The notes under the pieces: generated by a model | Databases searched by the model: none | Seen by the model: the letters and a program-made list of their open reading frames with translations, nothing else | Told to the model about the DNA's origin: nothing | Program-made: the position numbers and the translations under genes | Virus record (IMG/VR): IMGVR_UViG_2061766007_000738 | DNA: 64,000 nt | Reading direction: 5' to 3' (one strand) | Source: an uncultured virus (IMG/VR IMGVR_UViG_2061766007_000738) | Taxonomy: Duplodnaviria > Heunggongvirae > Uroviricota > Caudoviricetes | Shown here: piece by piece, positions 1,857-51,771 of the stretch | Position numbering within the stretch: the first letter of the stretch is position 1 | How the letters are laid out: every line of letters starts with the position of its first letter

Positions 1857-2838
1857 TTTCGCTCTCCATTGATACAAATACTCTCGCATGCGCAACCTCC
1901 CCGTCAAACCGAGGGTTTGCACTCATGCGGCACACCAAAGCGTCCTGCCAGCACGTTCCTAAAGTGACATCTCTATCCAGCGCATGCTTCAGTGCAACTT
2001 CATCACTATCCGCCTCGACATCTACCTTTACTTTGGCGGTCAACGACACCGAGTACTTCATCAATCCGCCAGCTCCTCCACGTCAGTGACCTGCACATCG
2101 AGGTCTACCGACCGGGCATCGGTACTCCCAAACACCTCCGCCGCGGTATTCCACGCGTCGTTTTCGTCCTCAGCGTCGAAATCCACTTCAAGCCATTCGG
2201 TCTGCTTGATGTATGCTCTGTATTTAGGCATATCACCACCCCTTATCGTCAATACAATGCCGTTTCAGCACCTCACGAACCGCCACCTCGGTGGCTTCCC
2301 ACTCATCGGCGTAGCCAAATGCAGGATGCATAACCGCCAGATACGCGTCATACAGTTCCTCTTGATGCTGCACGATGTAATCCCGGCCCTCAGACGGCAT
2401 GCCTTCCAGCGCGGCGTTGTCCTTGACATAGTCCTTGAAGAACTCTTCGGCTTTAGTTTTCTTCAGATCCTTAAGATCCTCCGGCTTTAACTCCTCGATC
2501 ATCTCGACTTCCTGCGAGACGTTGACGAGTTTGGGATTATCGATATAACCGAACTGCGCCACTGTCGAGGCCACCGCCTGACTCAGATCAGTACCCTCGA
2601 CTTCGAACTCATGCCACTCTGTACTACGAAGACGAACTTTATACTTAGGCATCTATCCTCTCCACTTTTGTAACCCACTCCGTAGGAAGAAGCGACGCCA
2701 ACTCATCCGCCCACTCACCGGGCGTATTGGCGGACTCTTCCTCTGNNNNNNNNNNNNNNNNNNNNNNNCCGCCGCGTCAACATCGAAATCACGACTAACC
2801 ACATGATCCCGCGTGATCCGTACACGATATCTAGGCAT
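1849..2838 (-). CDS. Four tandem small ORFs with related N-termini (DpnD/PcfM-like pattern)
   Basis: MKYSVSL..VEAD, MPKYRAYI..FDAE, MPKYKVRL..VEG, MPRYRVRI..VDAA; family name from recalled pattern only. Confidence 0.5.
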
Positions 2839-3583
2839 TTTACTCCTTTTTCAACAAGTCGATCAAGTCCTGCTCGGTCTTGGCGATATCCGCACCGCAC
2901 GCACCACAATAGAACGAGTTCCACTGATCGAAGTTGCTCTCGTCAACATAGGTATCCGCGTCTTCGAGCGGGTAAACCGANNNNNNNNNNNNNNNNNNCC
3001 GTGTTGGCAGTAACATCCGCACGCCACACACGCCGCACTCGAGCTTTCTTTCCGCAGTGCGGACAAGTAACCTCTATCGGAGTATCCGCGCGAATTATAC
3101 GGGAGTCGATCCTGCCAAAAATGTCCGACAAACAACGTAATATCTCCAACAAGTTCGTAGTGTTGCACTCGCGCAACTCGTCATAGTCGACATAATTCGC
3201 CGGAACTTCCAACACAACACGCAACGGAACCATCCGCTTTTCAGCTTTCTTCGACATAATTAAACGTCTCCATAATCATCATCTGGATCATACTCGGGAT
3301 CGACCGTCCACTCCATGCACTGGCATTCACCGGGAATGAAGTCCCGATACTGACCACAGCGAATCTTGTGGACGATCTCTTCCAACTCCGCAATCAACAC
3401 TTCCTCCGATTCCACAACGATCGGAGCCTCCATATCGAATTTATACATCAGCCTCGTAGCCCTCGTCGTAATTCAACATATCTTCCACTCCGCAGAGCCG
3501 CTCTTTCAGCTCGGCAAGCTCCACATCTTTCTGAAGCAGCAACTGAATCAGCTCCGCTCGACGTAACTTTGTGTAATTATTCA

Positions 3584-4919: not shown

Positions 4920-6047
4920 ATGTTAACTTTCAAGTACAAACTCTATTCTAATTCCAAACGTGGATATCTCGATGCACGCATCGACGCCTTCGGCGTCTTG
5001 TGGAATTATTGCATAGCGATGTACCGAAGGTACTACAAGTTGTATGGGAAGACTTTGAGTATGTATGCTTTGATGAAGCATATAACCAAAGTCAAGGGCA
5101 CTACGCATCCGTGGATGCGTGAGCTTCCTTCGCAAGCGGTGCAAGATGTGGTCTTCCGGGTGGACAAGTCTTATCGGCAATTCTTCCGGAAACGGAAGAA
5201 TCACGAAAAGGCACGTCCACCCAAGTTCCGTTCGATCAAGAAGTACCGTTCGTTTACCTTGACACAAGCCGGTTACGGCTTGTGCGGTAACAAAGTACGC
5301 ATCGGTACTCATCGCTACGGTTTTCATCTTTCCCGACCGATTGTCGGGAAGGTGAAAACCCTCACCGTGAAGAGAGACGCCGTAGGCGACTTGTGGATCG
5401 TCGTGGCTACGGACGCGGAGCGCCCTTTCCAAGACGTAGCCAAGTCGGGTAGAACCGTGGGTTACGACTTCGGAATGAAAACATTCCTCGTCTCCACCGA
5501 TCACCAAGACGTCGAGGCACCTCTCTTTTTGCAACAAGCTTCGACGAAGCTCCGAAGAGCTTCCCGAAGCGTGAGTCGCAAAAAGCGCGGATCCCACAAC
5601 CGGAAGAAAGCTTTGCAACGCAAAGCAAGGATCGAAAGGAAGATCACCAATCAACGTAGTGACTTCCAATGGAAGCTCGCACATAAGCTCCTTCGGAGCT
5701 ATGATGTGCTTTGCTTCGAAGACCTCGATCTTCAAGGAATCGCAAAGCGATTCGGCAAGAAGATCACCGAGTACTCCTTCGGGGAGTTCCTTGGTCGACT
5801 CGACTACTTGGCGCTTGTCTATGACAAGCAAGTAGTCAAGGTCGACCGGTGGTTCCCCTCTTCCAAGTTGTGTAGTAGTTGCGGATACAAGAAACAAGAT
5901 CTTCAACTCCGTGATCGCGCGTGGGTATGTCCCTCTTGTGGCGCGAGCCACAATCGGGACTACAACGCCGCGCTCAATATCTTACGGGAAGGGACATCTT
6001 CCTTGGGTAGTACTCGTAAGGCCGCCGCCGGCGGCGGAGTACGCTAG
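4920..6047 (+). CDS. tnpB: TnpB RNA-guided endonuclease
   Basis: N-terminal TFKYKLY; RuvC motifs VGYDFG, CFEDL, NRDYNAALNI; zinc finger CSSCG...CPSCG. Confidence 0.95.
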   Translation: MLTFKYKLYSNSKRGYLDARIDAFGVLWNYCIAMYRRYYKLYGKTLSMYALMKHITKVKGTTHPWMRELPSQAVQDVVFRVDKSYRQFFRKRKNHEKARPPKFRSIKKYRSFTLTQAGYGLCGNKVRIGTHRYGFHLSRPIVGKVKTLTVKRDAVGDLWIVVATDAERPFQDVAKSGRTVGYDFGMKTFLVSTDHQDVEAPLFLQQASTKLRRASRSVSRKKRGSHNRKKALQRKARIERKITNQRSDFQWKLAHKLLRSYDVLCFEDLDLQGIAKRFGKKITEYSFGEFLGRLDYLALVYDKQVVKVDRWFPSSKLCSSCGYKKQDLQLRDRAWVCPSCGASHNRDYNAALNILREGTSSLGSTRKAAAGGGVR

Positions 6048-37349: not shown

Positions 37350-37492
37350 AGTAGTAATCCTAGAAAGTGTTATTTGTGTTCTTACGCGAATATAAACACT
37401 ACCTCTATATTAAGGAAGGGGTGTGGGGGAACCATTCCGTTTACCTATTTGTTTACCTCTGGCTGAACATTTTAGTTTTTATCCAAAAACGC

Positions 37493-37521
37493 TTGACAAC
37501 CCACACTTTCAGCGCTATATT
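37493..37521 (+). promoter_or_regulatory. Sigma70-type promoter of the second tnpB (probably leaderless)
   Basis: TTGACA-17 bp-TATATT; ATG at 37529. Confidence 0.75.
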
Positions 37522-37528
37522 CTTACTC

Positions 37529-38731
37529 ATGCAGCGCCTAATTTATCGATCAGCCAAATTCCGGGTATACCCCAGTAAACAGCAGGACGCACACCTTCGT
37601 CATCTGTTGGAGGTGGGTTGCACTGTTCACAATTTGTGCCTGTACCGTCTGCGGAAACAGTTGGCGCGTGATAAATGTGTTCTGCCGCTAGAAAATTCTA
37701 AACGCTGGTCGAAAAAGAAACACTTCCAACAATACTACCAGCAATTGCCGACGTGGTTTCAAACGGGTGTTATCCGTGCTGCCGACCGTCAGTTTTTCGC
37801 CACACTGCGTGATGGTGTGCCGCACTTTCGTCCGAAGGTTCCCACACGCTACCACTCCATAGACATCAGCGCCGGTTTTCCGATTATCGGTGGCAAGCGC
37901 CTATACATCGGGGCTTTTGGTGGTCTGCGCATTAAACCGCACCGACCGCTCCCCAAAGACTGTCAGATCTATCAACAAACACTTTCTTTGGATGGCTCCG
38001 GACGCTGGTTCTACTTAGTTCGCTACTCTACCGTAATAGACATCCCTGAAAATACCGGGACTGCGGCTGTTGGCGTCGATGTCGGTTGCAGAACGTACGT
38101 CACTCTAAGTACCGGGGAAGCATTTGAGCACCCGCACTTTGGCAACAGCGTTCGCGAACGTATGCACGCACTGCATCGAGTACTCAAACACTCCTCCCCG
38201 GATAGCGCACGCTATCGTGTTGCCGATATAGAACTTCAGCGTATAGTGACCCGCCTGAAGGATCGGCAAAAGAACTTCATGCACCAACTCAGCCGACAGC
38301 TGGTGGACCGCTTCGACGTCATATGTGTTGAAGACTTGGACGTCAAGCGCATGTTGCAAAAAACTCGAACCAATTCTAAGCTATTCGACACAATCTTGGA
38401 CAGTCAATGGTCCACGTTCATCTCGATGCTGACTTACAAGGCTGAGAGTGCTGGTAAGAAAGTTATCCGAGTTCCGGCGTACCACACATCAAATCTCTGT
38501 TCGGGTTGTGGGGCAATGGTTGAGAAGACCCTGTCCGATCGTACCCACGTTTGTCCTCATTGCGGGTTGATACTGGACAGGGATCATAATGCAGCGTTAA
38601 ATATTTTGAAGCGAGGAACTCGCCAGGATACGGCCGTATCCGAAGTTGTACCCACAACAGTTCACAGAAGTGTAATTTCCTCAGCTCCCGATTCCACCAC
38701 GACTACAGAAGTAACTTACCTCTCCAAATAG
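37529..38731 (+). CDS. tnpB: Divergent TnpB-family nuclease without a recognisable IS left end
   Basis: KFRVYPSKQQ; RuvC VGVDVG, CVEDL, DRDHNAALNI; zinc finger CSGCG...CPHCG. Confidence 0.9.
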   Translation: MQRLIYRSAKFRVYPSKQQDAHLRHLLEVGCTVHNLCLYRLRKQLARDKCVLPLENSKRWSKKKHFQQYYQQLPTWFQTGVIRAADRQFFATLRDGVPHFRPKVPTRYHSIDISAGFPIIGGKRLYIGAFGGLRIKPHRPLPKDCQIYQQTLSLDGSGRWFYLVRYSTVIDIPENTGTAAVGVDVGCRTYVTLSTGEAFEHPHFGNSVRERMHALHRVLKHSSPDSARYRVADIELQRIVTRLKDRQKNFMHQLSRQLVDRFDVICVEDLDVKRMLQKTRTNSKLFDTILDSQWSTFISMLTYKAESAGKKVIRVPAYHTSNLCSGCGAMVEKTLSDRTHVCPHCGLILDRDHNAALNILKRGTRQDTAVSEVVPTTVHRSVISSAPDSTTTTEVTYLSK

Positions 38732-47820: not shown

Positions 47821-48362
47821 CTATTTTTAGGCACTTTTAGGGGTGTTTTGGGCATATACGCCAAAGTGCAGAATTTGCCCTTTCAAACATCAGTAAGAGG
47901 TCATTTTTGAGCTATTATAGGCGTTTTTGGAGCTTAAGAGCTCATTTTTGAGCTATTACACGCATAACTCGCGATAAAATGCCATTTTCGAGGGCTAGCT
48001 CGAGTTTTAATCGGAGTTATGGCGATTTTGGGACTAAAAATGTCAAGTTTGTGGAAGACATTCCAAGAACTTGGCAAAATTGCCGAGTTTGAGGAGTTTG
48101 CACCCCAAATTTAAGAAAAATCATGTCGAATTTCTTAAAAATCGAGCTCAGAGTCAGAAAAGTGTCGGAAATAGTCGGTTTCTGTCGGGAAAAGTGTCAA
48201 AATATGCGAAAATCCCTATTAGAAGGGGATAAAACCCACTTTTAACACGGTTTTAACCCACATTAGCCCAGCGGGCGCTGCTTTGGTGAAATTTGAGGAT
48301 AAGCCCTTGAAAAACCGCTAAAATGGACTATATTGAGTGCGAATACTGCCGAAAGGACGCAC

Positions 48363-51300
48363 ATGAACGCAGAAAAGCTGATAAAAGAGACCGTAGAACG
48401 CATAAAAAGCGGTCAACTTACCGATTTTTCCCCATTGATAGCGCTTTTCCAGTATGAGCGCAAACCAATGACCTTAGACGGTCATTTTATGTTTTTGCCG
48501 TTGTTTTCGCTGGAAAGACCTAAATATATCTCCCTACAATCAGGTCGTCAGGTCTCTAAATCATTCACCTCAGCAGAAGTGAGTTTACTGACGACTGGAA
48601 TGATAGAGAGTTTCAACTCTATCTATATTGCGCCCAGATACGAGCAGATCAAGCGTTTTAATAGTCAGGTTCTGCACCCATTGATGAAGTCGTCTCCGGT
48701 AACGCCTTTGCTTATTGATAAGGAAGGATCTTATTCGATTGAGATGAAGTCTTTCCTGAACGGGAATTCATTAACATTGGCACATTCTTATCTAAATCCC
48801 GATTCTGTTCGTGGTTTGACTAACTGTGGCTCCCTGCAGGTTGATGAGTCCGTCCGCGGGGACACAAAAATTGCAATCTTTCACTTGACAGATTGCCAAG
48901 ATGGTGTATATTATATCTCGGATAGGCCGGAGATCGTTCCGATATCCGAGGTAAAACAAGGCGATATAGTGATGTCGTTCACCTCGGAAGGCTGTATATA
49001 CAGCCCGGTGGTGCGAGATGCGTCCTACCATGGGCGTAGAGCCGTATTTAAGGTTACTACGCAAAGTGGACGCAGTCTGTGTTGTACCGCCGACCACATG
49101 CTGCAGACTAATAAAGGCGGTATGCGATTATCAGAGTTAATCGAATATGCTTGTAACAGCAGAAATGGTGCGCGAGCAGGCGCAGAAGGATGGCATCAAC
49201 GAGATGGTGCTGAGTGCGATTGTGGGAACGATTCTGGGGGACGCGAATGTGCGGCGACCCCGTCCTTGGGGAAACGCGAACTCCGGTCTTCGGTGGAACC
49301 ACGGCCTGAAGCAGAAAGACTATTTGGAGTACAAAGCGAGCATATTATCCGGGCTCGTTACCCGTCCAGTATCCGTGAAGGAGAATCCCGGCTACGGGAA
49401 GTATTGGGCTGTGCTGACAACCAGGTCTTTGCGGACATTTACATTGCTTGCGTGGATGATCTATCCGGAAGAACGTGCTCCGAAGACTATAACCGCGGAG
49501 TTGTTGAAGCTAATAACCCACCCAATCGGGCTGGCGTGGTGGTTCGGGGACGACGGTTCCAGAAGCAAAGGATTAAACGGCGGATCCATTGCGACAAACG
49601 GCTTCACCGAGGAAGAAGTAGACTTGCTGAAGTCTTGGCTTGCGGCCGTCNNNNNNNNNNNNNNNNNNNNNNNNNNNNNNNNNNNNNNNNNNNNNNCTCC
49701 GGTAATATACTTGGATCGACTTGCATTTATAAAGTTATCAGAACTGGCACTGGAGTTTCTACCGGAGTCGATGCAGTACAAATTGGTACTTATCAAGAAA
49801 ACGTGCGCACATTGCGGAGCGGAGTNNNNNNNNNNNNNNNNNNNNNNNNNNNNNNNNNNNNNNNNNNNNNNNNNNNNNNNNNNNNNNNNNNNNNNNNNNN
49901 NNNNNNNNNNNNNCACGAGAAACACATTGCTTACGGAGCGGCGTATCGGGAGGCACATCGAGAAGAAATTCGCCAGAAGTCCCGCGACGCGTATGCGGCG
50001 ATGACACCGGAACAGCGCGAGCACAAAGCGCAGTATTGGAAAGATTATGTGGAGACCCATCGGGATCAGCGCAATGCAAAGCGTCGAGAACTGCGTGCGC
50101 GCAAGAAGGGCGACCCGGAGTACGAACGGAAGCTGAAGGAAGAGCGCCAACGCTACTATCAGCGAAAAAAGGCGGATCCAGTACGTCACGCGCACTTGTT
50201 GGAGCTGTCACGTGCAGCACGACAACGGCCCTCCCGGAAACAGCACGACTTGGAGTATCAACGCAAATACCGGGCGGAGCATCCGGAGGTATACACAGCG
50301 CAGAGAGCGCGTGCCGAGGCACGTCGAAAAGAGCGTATGCAAAACGATCCAGAATATCGGGAAAAACGCTTAGCACAAGAGCGAGAAATACAAGCGCGAC
50401 GGCGTGCGAAGAAACAGTTAAAAAAGACAACTTCGTCTACGACCGAATAATCACTATAGAATACGTCGGCGAGGAGGATGTCTATGACATCGAAGTAGTT
50501 GGTACACACAACTACATCCTCGCCAACGGAATATGCTCCTATAATTGCCAAGATATTAACCCCGATTTTCTCCCGGTTTTCGAATCCACGACTGACGCAT
50601 CTAAGTATGGATGTATACAGACGACGGGTACTCCTAAGACATCAGATACACTTCTTACATTGCAATTCAATAAATCGTCGCAGTGTCATTGGGCGATTAA
50701 ATGTCCGCATTGTGCTAAATGGAATATTGCCGCTATTGACGAACAACTTATAAAGATGATCGGCAAAGCAGGGCTCTCCTGCGCCTTCTGCGGAAAGATT
50801 CTTGACCCACGTACAGGTGGGTGGTTGCCGAAGTTCCCTGAGCGCCAGCGGTTCCACGCGGGCTATCACGTCCCGCAGATCATTCTTCCTATGCACTGCG
50901 AGAATCCGACCAAGTGGGCAGTACTAAGATCCCGACAGGCTGAGTGGACTCAAAGTAAGTTCTTCAATGAAGTGCTCGGGGTGGAGGCGGATCAAAGTGT
51001 TAAATTATTGACTGTTAATGACTTAGAGAAAGCTCAGGGTCCTTGGGAAAATTCCTTGGACAACGCCGCCAAGATGGCGAAGGAATTCACTACAGTGTTC
51101 GTCGGCGTGGACTGGTCGGGAGGCGGTGGTGGTTTCAGCCGTACCGCCATTTCGGTGATAGGGCATAGGAGCGGTCATCGGGATACTTGTGTGCTGTTCC
51201 TCGAAACTTTGCCGCATGGTCTGACTCCCGAAGAAGAAGCAGACCGCGTAGCCGCGGTATATGCACGTGTAGGCGCACAGATGCTCGCACACGACTATAC

Positions 51301-51771
51301 CGGTGCGGGGTTCGTACGCGAATCCGTTCTCTTGGGCAGACATCCTTATCTGCGGGACCACATCTATCCCTTCGCCTACGTATTCCGTACCGGCAAGCAG
51401 CTTGTAACCTACCAAGAATCCGGCAGCCGCAAAAGCGCTAACGTAGNNNNNNNNNNNTCAACTCCATTCGCTCCGGGTTGTTGCGCATTCCTAAATTCAA
51501 CCCGGCGAATCCCAAGGAGCCCATCTTGGAGATGCTGAACATCGTGGAGCGTCCGCAGGAATTCTCCAAAGCCTCCATCAAGGACGTGTATATTCTACAA
51601 CGAGCCGCGGGCAGATATGATGACGCCGCGCATGCGGTCAACATCGCCTATATCGCACAATGCGACTTGACGGAGGATTGGCCTAACTTCGCGATGGATC
51701 CCAAGTATGAGATGTCGGAAGCCGCTTTGAATGAACTTACGGGAGGTAGCGGAGAGGTAAGCGTGATCTAA
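48363..51771 (+). CDS. terL: Terminase large subunit, intein-containing
   Basis: Walker A GRQVSKS; Walker B LQVDE|CQD split by the intein; GTPKT; CPHC/CAFC; nuclease VGVDW and YDDAAHA. Confidence 0.9.
48849..50545 (+). mobile_element. Intein in terminase Walker B
   Basis: Block A SVRGDTKI, block B TADH, blocks F/G VYDIEVVGTHNYILANGICSYN followed by Cys+1. Confidence 0.9.
49147..50450 (+). CDS. LAGLIDADG homing endonuclease with Cys motif and long basic helical tail, in the +1 frame inside the intein
   Basis: AIVGTILGDA and LAWWFGDDGS motifs; own ATG; joined to the R/K/E-rich tail across the 49826-49913 gap by inference. Confidence 0.8.

Follow-up and report, generated by a model that had tools for sequence, protein, structure and literature searches.

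Canonical inteins carry their homing endonuclease in frame. In the 64,000-nucleotide stretch of DNA analyzed here (hereafter the window; IMG/VR record IMGVR_UViG_2061766007_000738, from an uncultured virus of the Caudoviricetes), an intein splits the gene for the large terminase subunit at its Walker B motif (DE/CQD, 48849-50545), and the endonuclease lies between the two splicing regions of this intein as a nested gene in the +1 frame. Inteins whose endonuclease occupies a frame of its own have already been described (bioRxiv 10.1101/2025.01.02.630785; bioRxiv 10.64898/2026.09.14.751524), and the present element adds a case to this known, rare design. Its features are best explained, with a probability of roughly 0.8, by a mobile, non-canonical Walker B intein with a nested +1 endonuclease gene, which would be removed from the terminase by splicing and spread by homing.

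Among the described systems, a cyanobacterial dnaX intein has an out-of-frame LAGLIDADG gene (Phillips, DeSimone and Gogarten, bioRxiv 10.64898/2026.09.14.751524), the first hint of which that preprint credits to Gorbalenya 1998. The dnaX element resembles ours in having a same-strand, overlapping endonuclease open reading frame (ORF) between the N and C splicing regions, a low-confidence linker in the intein frame, an endonuclease frame under purifying selection, and intein-free and mini alleles that coexist; further, its authors overlaid the endonuclease on I-WcaI (6X1J), one of the two best fold matches in the present case. The two differ in that the dnaX element sits in a bacterial host gene, with the frame named '+2 ORF', whereas ours sits in a phage terminase and is +1, and in that the window endonuclease has a zinc ribbon as well as a basic helical tail of about 200 amino acids (aa). 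A second set comprises the non-canonical inteins of actinobacteriophages, many of them in terminases (Gosselin, Arsenault and Gogarten, bioRxiv 10.1101/2025.01.02.630785). The origin proposed for them, namely invasion of an intein by a free-standing endonuclease, is a point of likeness. In the main text of that preprint, an endonuclease VII-like gene, placed in 'frame 3', is the same-strand case, and the LAGLIDADG and VSR-like cases are antisense, whereas the present element combines a same-strand +1 gene of the I-SceI-like LAGLIDADG_2 type with a rumen phage and another terminase family; the supplementary tables might list more types.

Two other designs are also related. The fractured genes of Dassa et al. 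2009 (PMC2677866) likewise place an endonuclease gene of the free-standing type between the intein halves of an essential gene, whereas here the halves share one uninterrupted frame that runs through the endonuclease gene. The ShiLan-type HNH insertion in a phage methylase (PMC11855218) also hides an endonuclease ORF in another frame within an insert that is stop-free in the host frame; in contrast to the present insert, which is flanked by intein blocks, it is described as having no splicing domain and staying in the protein. On the side of the enzyme, I-SceI and I-WcaI (PF03161, monomeric) belong to the same sequence family as the window endonuclease and share the fold of its 74%-identical homologue P0007, but these two enzymes are encoded by group I introns and possess neither the zinc ribbon nor the long basic tail. 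Our literature search, which did not extend to the supplements of either preprint (where one might be listed), recovered no terminase intein with a same-strand +1 gene of the I-SceI-like LAGLIDADG_2 type.

The locus comprises the following features, with frames given as position modulo 3 in window numbering (frame 0, 1 or 2) and N denoting unread letters:
48363-48848, plus strand: N-extein of the large terminase subunit (GpA type), 162 aa, ending in the Walker B motif ..VDE; seen in its translation and collinear with the intein-free P0011
48849-49146, plus strand: N-terminal splicing region of the intein, frame 0, with Ser1 and block B TADH, ending in ..RLSELIE; seen in its translation and aligning with the N splicing regions of relatives
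49147-50450, plus strand: homing endonuclease gene with an I-SceI-like LAGLIDADG_2 core, a CxxC..CSxEC zinc ribbon and the basic helical tail of about 200 aa; identified by PF03161 (expectation value, E, 1.6e-21) and by homologues
49147-50425, plus strand: intein-frame read-through of the endonuclease gene, a shifted-frame linker of about 433 aa, G/R/S/A/C-rich and stop-free; identified by frames, shuffles and relatives
49651-49696, no strand: run of 46 N with a true length of 55 letters, frame preserved; X1, X2 and X3 contigs have 9 extra letters
49826-49913, no strand: run of 88 N with a true length of 101 letters, +1 modulo 3; X1 record 2 and X2 record 6
50426-50545, plus strand: C-terminal splicing region of the intein, DNFVYDRIITIEYVGEEDVYDIEVVGTHNYILANGICSYN, frame 2 in window numbering; matches positions 114-155 of 155 of Pfam Intein_splicing at 29.7 bits
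50546-51771, plus strand: C-extein of the terminase, starting CQDINPDF, with a change of apparent frame (2 to 1) at the 11-N run 51447-51457; collinear with P0011 and sharing 87% identity with P0161

The intein-free relative P0011 (577 aa, 77% identity) matches the terminase large subunit family phrog_675 at 4.8e-43 and, additionally, PF05876 (GpA_ATPase). Since this protein is collinear with the exteins and reads ..TDEAQDVNPDF.. at the point where the window has ..VDE, the intein and then CQDINPDF.., the insertion is precise, with the exteins joining at residue 162. On the N-terminal side, the nucleophile at intein position 1 is the Ser at 48849-48851, directly behind ..VDE; VRGD comes next and CTADH follows about 85 residues in. 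The C-terminal region ends in ..VYDIEVVGTHNYILANGICSYN, followed by CQDINPDF.. from 50546, and its blocks read VYDIEV..THNY..SYN/C, with a terminal Asn and a Cys as the +1 extein residue (..ICSYN/CQD, 50545/50546). These translations bear out the initial annotation of this DNA, made from the sequence alone, which had taken SVRGD and TADH together with VYDIEV..HNY..SYN/C as the blocks of an intein splitting Walker B. The N piece taken alone scores 20.6 bits against Pfam Hint and 15.9 bits against Intein_splicing, both under the cut-off, and the relative P0016 reaches 36.2 bits in the same kind of search.

The record itself is a gapped scaffold with 81 N runs whose lengths deviate from the true lengths, and hence reading frames across any of its N runs are not to be trusted. 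In the numbering of the window, frame 0 holds the N-extein and the intein N region, and also the endonuclease tail that follows the second N run; the rest of the endonuclease occupies frame 1, and frame 2 is that of the intein C region and C-extein. The nominal length of the intein, 1697 nucleotides (nt), is not a multiple of three. Stop-free spans extend over 48303-50447 in frame 0, 49141-50001 in frame 1 and 49733-51535 in frame 2, in agreement with the earlier observation that the intein frame has no stop in any sequenced base and encodes low-information sequence. To this stretch we aligned contigs from four public sequencing runs (X1, X2, X3 and X4), the latter two of which come from a second sample of a separate study. 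With the true lengths of the two gaps, the intein measures 1697 + 9 + 13 = 1719 nt, i.e., 573 codons. The 13 letters added where 101 replace 88 N (+1 modulo 3) join the endonuclease in frame 1 to its tail in frame 0 and, at the same time, the intein frame 0 to frame 2, just as had been anticipated from a single 1-nt correction within 49826-49913; thus, the apparent change of the endonuclease from frame 1 to frame 0 arises because the second N run is 13 letters short. The same spacing is seen in proteins from elsewhere: four endonuclease homologues (P0007-P0010) place exactly 19 residues opposite the first gap and 34 opposite the second, as predicted, and P0161, the nearest complete precursor (1152 aa), has 19 and 35 intein-frame residues at the equivalent places, without a stop.

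The openness of the intein frame exceeds chance. When the 388 visible codons of the endonuclease were shuffled synonymously 20,000 times, 14.0 +/- 2.8 intein-frame stops were expected and at least 4 were present in every shuffle, against 0 in the actual sequence, a value that 0 of the 20,000 shuffles reached. The other off-frame of the endonuclease has 19 stops against 21.7 expected, and the exteins, used as controls in the same test, have 16 against 16.3 and 20 against 18.7. The translation of the intein frame (its tested part, P0006) matches no endonuclease family in Pfam.

These observations bear on two alternatives. According to the first, the terminase is a fractured gene with a split intein: a stop would be hidden in one of the N runs, the endonuclease would stand free between the halves, the C half would start anew, and the two products would be joined by trans-splicing. 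The gap letters themselves being unread leaves room for such a stop, fractured genes of this design are known (PMC2677866), and in the related locus L028 the N and C parts occupy separate frames that overlap. In the window, however, the N and C frames join exactly at the true gap lengths and none of the visible codons is a stop, P0161 runs uninterrupted at the same spacing, seven further loci are likewise continuous, and a split intein would leave unexplained why 388 visible shifted-frame codons contain 0 stops when 14 are expected; we therefore consider it very unlikely. According to the second, assembly or sequencing indels have displaced a normal, in-frame endonuclease domain, as a gapped scaffold with N runs of wrong length might lead one to suspect. 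Indel errors near 49147 and 50450 had been named at the outset as a possible cause. Yet contigs of the second sample cross both junctions without an indel (X3 record 10, 48900-49175, crosses 49140, and X4 record 19, 50376-50562, crosses 50420-50450, with 0 gaps each), the same offset is found in all 12 loci matched by the endonuclease profile, the endonuclease is in frame in 0 of 150 relatives, and the stop avoidance would again have no explanation. Hence, for practical purposes, an indel artefact is refuted.

The ATG of the nested gene at 49147 lies just 3' of an in-frame TAA (49138-49140) and its stop is the TAA at 50448-50450; across the corrected gaps it encodes 441 aa (168 + 19 + 42 + 34 + 178). 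The two LAGLIDADG motifs (ILGDANV and WWFGDDGS) and the CAHC motif that the initial annotation had pointed out in this ORF, as well as the basic helical tail running to 50450, are all borne out, and the match to Pfam PF03161 (LAGLIDADG_2) has an E of 1.6e-21 and 77.4 bits against a cut-off of 25. All four homologues P0007-P0010 are full length (426-439 aa, 60-74% identity, with P0007 at 74%), supply the second half of the CxxC..CSxEC zinc ribbon, and retain the Asp residues of both LAGLIDADG motifs invariantly. The start of the gene is embedded in the intein codons GAA-TAT-GCT (E-Y-A) and its stop lies within the R-I-I codons. As this stop falls inside the first conserved codons of the intein C region, the homologues conserve the same ..SSTTE end. 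In loci L020 and L022, too, an ATG occurs at the equivalent place (GAG-CAT-GAA and GAA-CAT-GTC, respectively), with a stop two codons upstream. A profile of the homologues matches the chains of I-SceI with an E of about 1e-12 and I-WcaI (6X1J) with an E of 1.7e-10. Further, the AlphaFold model of P0007 (mean predicted local distance difference test score, pLDDT, 76.9) comprises two halves of alpha-beta-beta-alpha-beta-beta-alpha topology, with a small beta ribbon where the CxxC site lies and long helices that take up about 190 residues; in the fold search it matched I-SceI and I-WcaI best (E 1.7e-10 and 2.6e-10; template modeling score 0.63-0.65 on the target). The basic tail matches no family in Pfam or PHROGs.

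The layout is widespread among related terminases. A HMMER search of 1.84 billion cluster representatives, with the read-through, intein C region and C-extein as the query, listed 150 terminases, including intein-free forms (about 560-630 aa, e.g., P0011), mini-intein forms (e.g., P0014, 756 aa) and many precursors of 1000-1300 aa. Of the 49 listed relatives that reach 900 aa or more, 25 were searched against Pfam: at a second site, further upstream, eight have a canonical intein whose LAGLIDADG_3 domain is in frame, and the other 17 match no endonuclease family. In nine of the latter (P0015, P0016, P0017, P0021, P0026, P0033, P0056, P0059 and P0061), the intein match spans or abuts the Walker B insertion. 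Among all 150, the read-through profile matches 39 (E <= 1e-3), and the endonuclease profile matches none in the precursor frame. Within the low-complexity middle of the precursors, the motif VHGRR is invariant in eight of the eight aligned Walker B precursors, and it is the shifted-frame overprint of the second LAGLIDADG motif, WF(G/M)DDG. As a separate observation, the second, upstream intein site is occupied by canonical inteins of this LAGLIDADG_3 kind in P0027, P0039, P0046, P0053, P0055, P0060, P0062 and P0070, and in locus L021, near the GRQVxK Walker A motif; some terminases of the same family carry inteins at both sites.

At the DNA level, which we could follow in 99 related loci, the endonuclease profile matches plus-strand ORFs in 12, always in the +1 frame relative to the terminase match. 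Seven of these 12 (L016, L017, L018, L096, L020, L022, and L024 with its equal L099) combine a continuous precursor of 1089-1250 aa with a +1 endonuclease ORF that is 435-512 aa long. The comparison of homologues for stop avoidance that had been called for has a consistent outcome: the precursor frame of these seven intact loci contains 0 stops against 7.9-26.1 expected, with shuffle minima of 2-14 (2000 shuffles each). Other loci present what appear as further states of the element. In L021 and L097 the precursor is open and the endonuclease is reduced to remnants of about 95 aa; in L019 (1438-4008), the extein of which is 94% identical to that of L016, most of the endonuclease has been deleted in the precursor frame, leaving an intein of intermediate size. 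L028 (1429-4685) has an N-extein, intein N region and read-through that end at a stop at 3291, and an intein C region and C-extein in another frame, with an ORF from 3084; its endonuclease ORF (2153-3124) is without the long tail, and a zinc-ribbon-like stretch lies in frame 0. This locus may be a split form or may reflect a frameshift error. L102 (908-3468, a contig of a metagenome-assembled genome) has a free-standing 395-aa endonuclease homologue before a truncated C-terminal fragment of a terminase, without intein halves, and its shifted frame contains 16 stops against 20.5 expected. The remaining loci mostly give matches of 1.0-1.75 kb, the size of the intein-free gene.

Pairwise comparison of L016, L017, L018 and L096 allowed the selective regime of the two frames to be distinguished by codon phase. 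In the exteins, differences fall on position 3 of the precursor codons (e.g., 7/0/68 and 4/0/56 over the three positions). In the overlap, they fall on precursor position 1, which is position 3 of the endonuclease codons (68/32/26, 100/39/35, 36/10/8 and 63/17/11). This phase implies that the amino acids of the endonuclease are conserved while the read-through is free to vary except for stops; the endonuclease frame is hence under purifying selection in these four relatives, as had been expected of the +1 frame. For the lineage of the window we have protein identities only, taken from different relatives: 74% between its endonuclease and P0007, and 39-54% between its read-through and that of P0161, the flanks of which reach 75% and 87%. 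The intein N region behaves differently from the exteins around it: it differs by 35% between L016 and L017 (exteins 3-6% different) and is identical between L017 and L018 (exteins about 5% different). Such mosaicism suggests recombination or exchange of intein parts between phages.

The second sample provides information on the alleles in the population. A 969-nt contig aligns with the window at 48300-48508 and then again at 50687-50763, with 481 unaligned letters between the two segments; by length arithmetic, these correspond to 340 nt of N-extein and 141 nt of C-extein, i.e., to a terminase gene with no intein. The same sample also yields contigs from inside the intein. Judging by these lengths only, an intein-free allele of a diverged relative would coexist with the intein in this sample. 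If so, targets for homing exist. Separately, two contigs (X1 record 3 and X2 record 7) match the window only at the junction of the intein end and the extein start (50519-50557); their flanks differ and read like another terminase intein, of the L020 type. The probable source sample of the window, to which these contigs belong, thus seems to contain a second phage with an intein.

Selection and alleles together bear on whether the endonuclease gene might have fallen out of use, with the intein fixed and the +1 ORF being a relic that has not yet decayed. Decay does occur in the family, as seen in the remnants of about 95 aa in L021 and L097 and the deletion in L019, and in the window, which has no clear ribosome-binding site, we infer the expression of the endonuclease rather than observe it. 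A relic would, however, have to have kept a 441-aa ORF intact with both catalytic motifs, in the company of four homologues at 60-74% identity that are all full length; moreover, the substitutions in relatives follow the codon phase of the endonuclease, and intein-free alleles seem to occur in the second sample. We accordingly judge a relic to be improbable.

Hence, we return to a mobile Walker B intein with a nested endonuclease gene, for which we envisage the following mechanism. A HINT domain would follow the DE of Walker B, interrupted by the endonuclease gene of about 1.3 kb at the place where canonical inteins hold their endonuclease domain. Ribosomes translating the terminase would read through this gene in the intein frame, which selection would keep free of stops, and the product of this read-through would be a linker of about 433 aa that is probably disordered. 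Protein splicing would then remove the 573-aa intein and ligate ..VDE to CQD.., restoring the ATPase. The 441-aa endonuclease would be translated separately from its own ATG at 49147 and would be expected to cut the intein-free terminase alleles of co-infecting relatives at the DE/AQD site, whereupon repair would copy the whole element, i.e., result in homing. A dual-coding region of this kind had been proposed from the window alone, and the stop avoidance, the true gap lengths, the second sample, the conservation and the codon phase of the substitutions all lend it support. The two-frame anatomy is directly visible in the DNA, the stop avoidance, its conservation and the purifying selection in relatives are measured, and intein-free alleles such as P0011 are documented.

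Several points pull in the other direction. At the splice junction, the penultimate residue of the intein is Tyr instead of the usual His. The window pieces score 20.6 bits (Hint) and 23.1 and 29.7 bits (Intein_splicing), below the curated cut-offs of 29.7 and 35.8, respectively. The AlphaFold model of a relative's intein (intein frame, 6 sequences) has a mean pLDDT of 36, too poor for a fold search, and is therefore uninformative on the HINT fold. No clear Shine-Dalgarno sequence was found before the ATG at 49147, whereas L020 has GGAGG and L102 has AAGGAG. A stop within the 55 and 101 gap letters, in either frame, appears to be excluded by homology and length only. The relatives used in the codon-phase test have exteins only about 46% identical to those of the window and lie outside its lineage. 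Finally, the splicing of the precursor, the separate translation of the endonuclease and its cleavage target are steps that we infer, the first of them from the need for a working terminase.

The expression of the two products is also where a further alternative arises, namely programmed frameshifting to an in-frame fusion of intein and endonuclease, by a +1 shift near 49140 and a -1 shift at the A_AAA_AAG heptamer at 50420-50426. This heptamer lies eight codons before the endonuclease stop, so that a -1 slip would lead into the intein C frame, and a second copy occurs at 50165-50171; both are in phase with the frame of the endonuclease tail, and a -1 slip at either would enter the open intein frame. 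In our view, both heptamers arise incidentally where Lys-Lys codons occur in this Lys-rich tail. Relatives do not conserve a slippery site at the tail end, 49140 offers no evident +1 site, and frameshifting would leave a whole stop-free shifted frame without explanation; fusion by this route is thus highly improbable.

If, as we prefer, the nested gene is expressed on its own, its displacement from the intein frame might be more than an accident. As 39 of the 150 representatives carry the read-through and none has an in-frame endonuclease, we tentatively suggest that the out-of-frame state is a stable, selected form of an old Walker B intein lineage, freeing the endonuclease from the timing and level of a late terminase, a suggestion that we hold to be possible and yet rather less likely than its converse. 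Were it true, the endonuclease could use signals of its own and be made early enough to cut co-infecting intein-free genomes before packaging. One candidate for such a signal, offered as a lead only, is located within the intein N region, with the endonuclease ATG following about 235 nt downstream:
48885-48912, plus strand: sigma-70-like promoter match (TTGACA, 16 nt, TATATT; 11/12); a match to the consensus only, and the promoter type of the host may differ

In terms of its wider import, which we regard as moderate, the main interest of the case lies in the breadth and age of the lineage and in its full set of stages of the homing cycle. The case, which is well documented, extends a design of which few examples were known until recently to another endonuclease family, another terminase family, and uncultured phages from the rumen and other metagenomes. 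One gene family offers full, endonuclease-deleted, decayed, mini and empty alleles side by side, which makes it suitable for tests of the homing cycle. For annotation, gene callers would either miss the endonuclease or break the terminase, and consequently intein surveys that seek in-frame endonucleases would class such cases as large inteins without an endonuclease. Further, a natural, probably disordered linker of about 430 aa speaks to the amount of unrelated sequence that may be accommodated between the halves of a HINT domain.

As for its context, the window is part of the genome of a large, uncultured double-stranded DNA phage, and near-identical DNA is found in bovine gut metagenome runs, none of which is an RNA run. 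The element most probably resides in an uncultured rumen phage that carries a non-canonical, mobile intein in its large terminase gene. A blastn search of an annotated phage collection gave no match to the window; scans of viral contigs with the window endonuclease or the C-extein gave distant matches only, or none; and a viral scan with the endonuclease alignment gave no match. A metagenome scan with the endonuclease retrieved only free-standing endonucleases at 24-29% identity, e.g., a tandem pair in L004. In the protein collection, the window endonuclease was absent at 92-294 aa, and the protein search found no near-identical copy of the window's own precursor. Pairing the endonuclease proteins P0007-P0010 with precursors by codon compatibility gave no exact pair, the best reaching 0.87. 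The other genes of the window encode a DNA polymerase, a DnaB-like helicase, a UvsX-like recombinase, an SbcC-like protein, an anti-repressor and two transposases. The latter, two copies of one transposase family, both match phrog_506 'transposase' strongly and lie on the plus strand, at 4920-6044 (E 5.8e-92) and 37367-38728 (E 2.2e-72).

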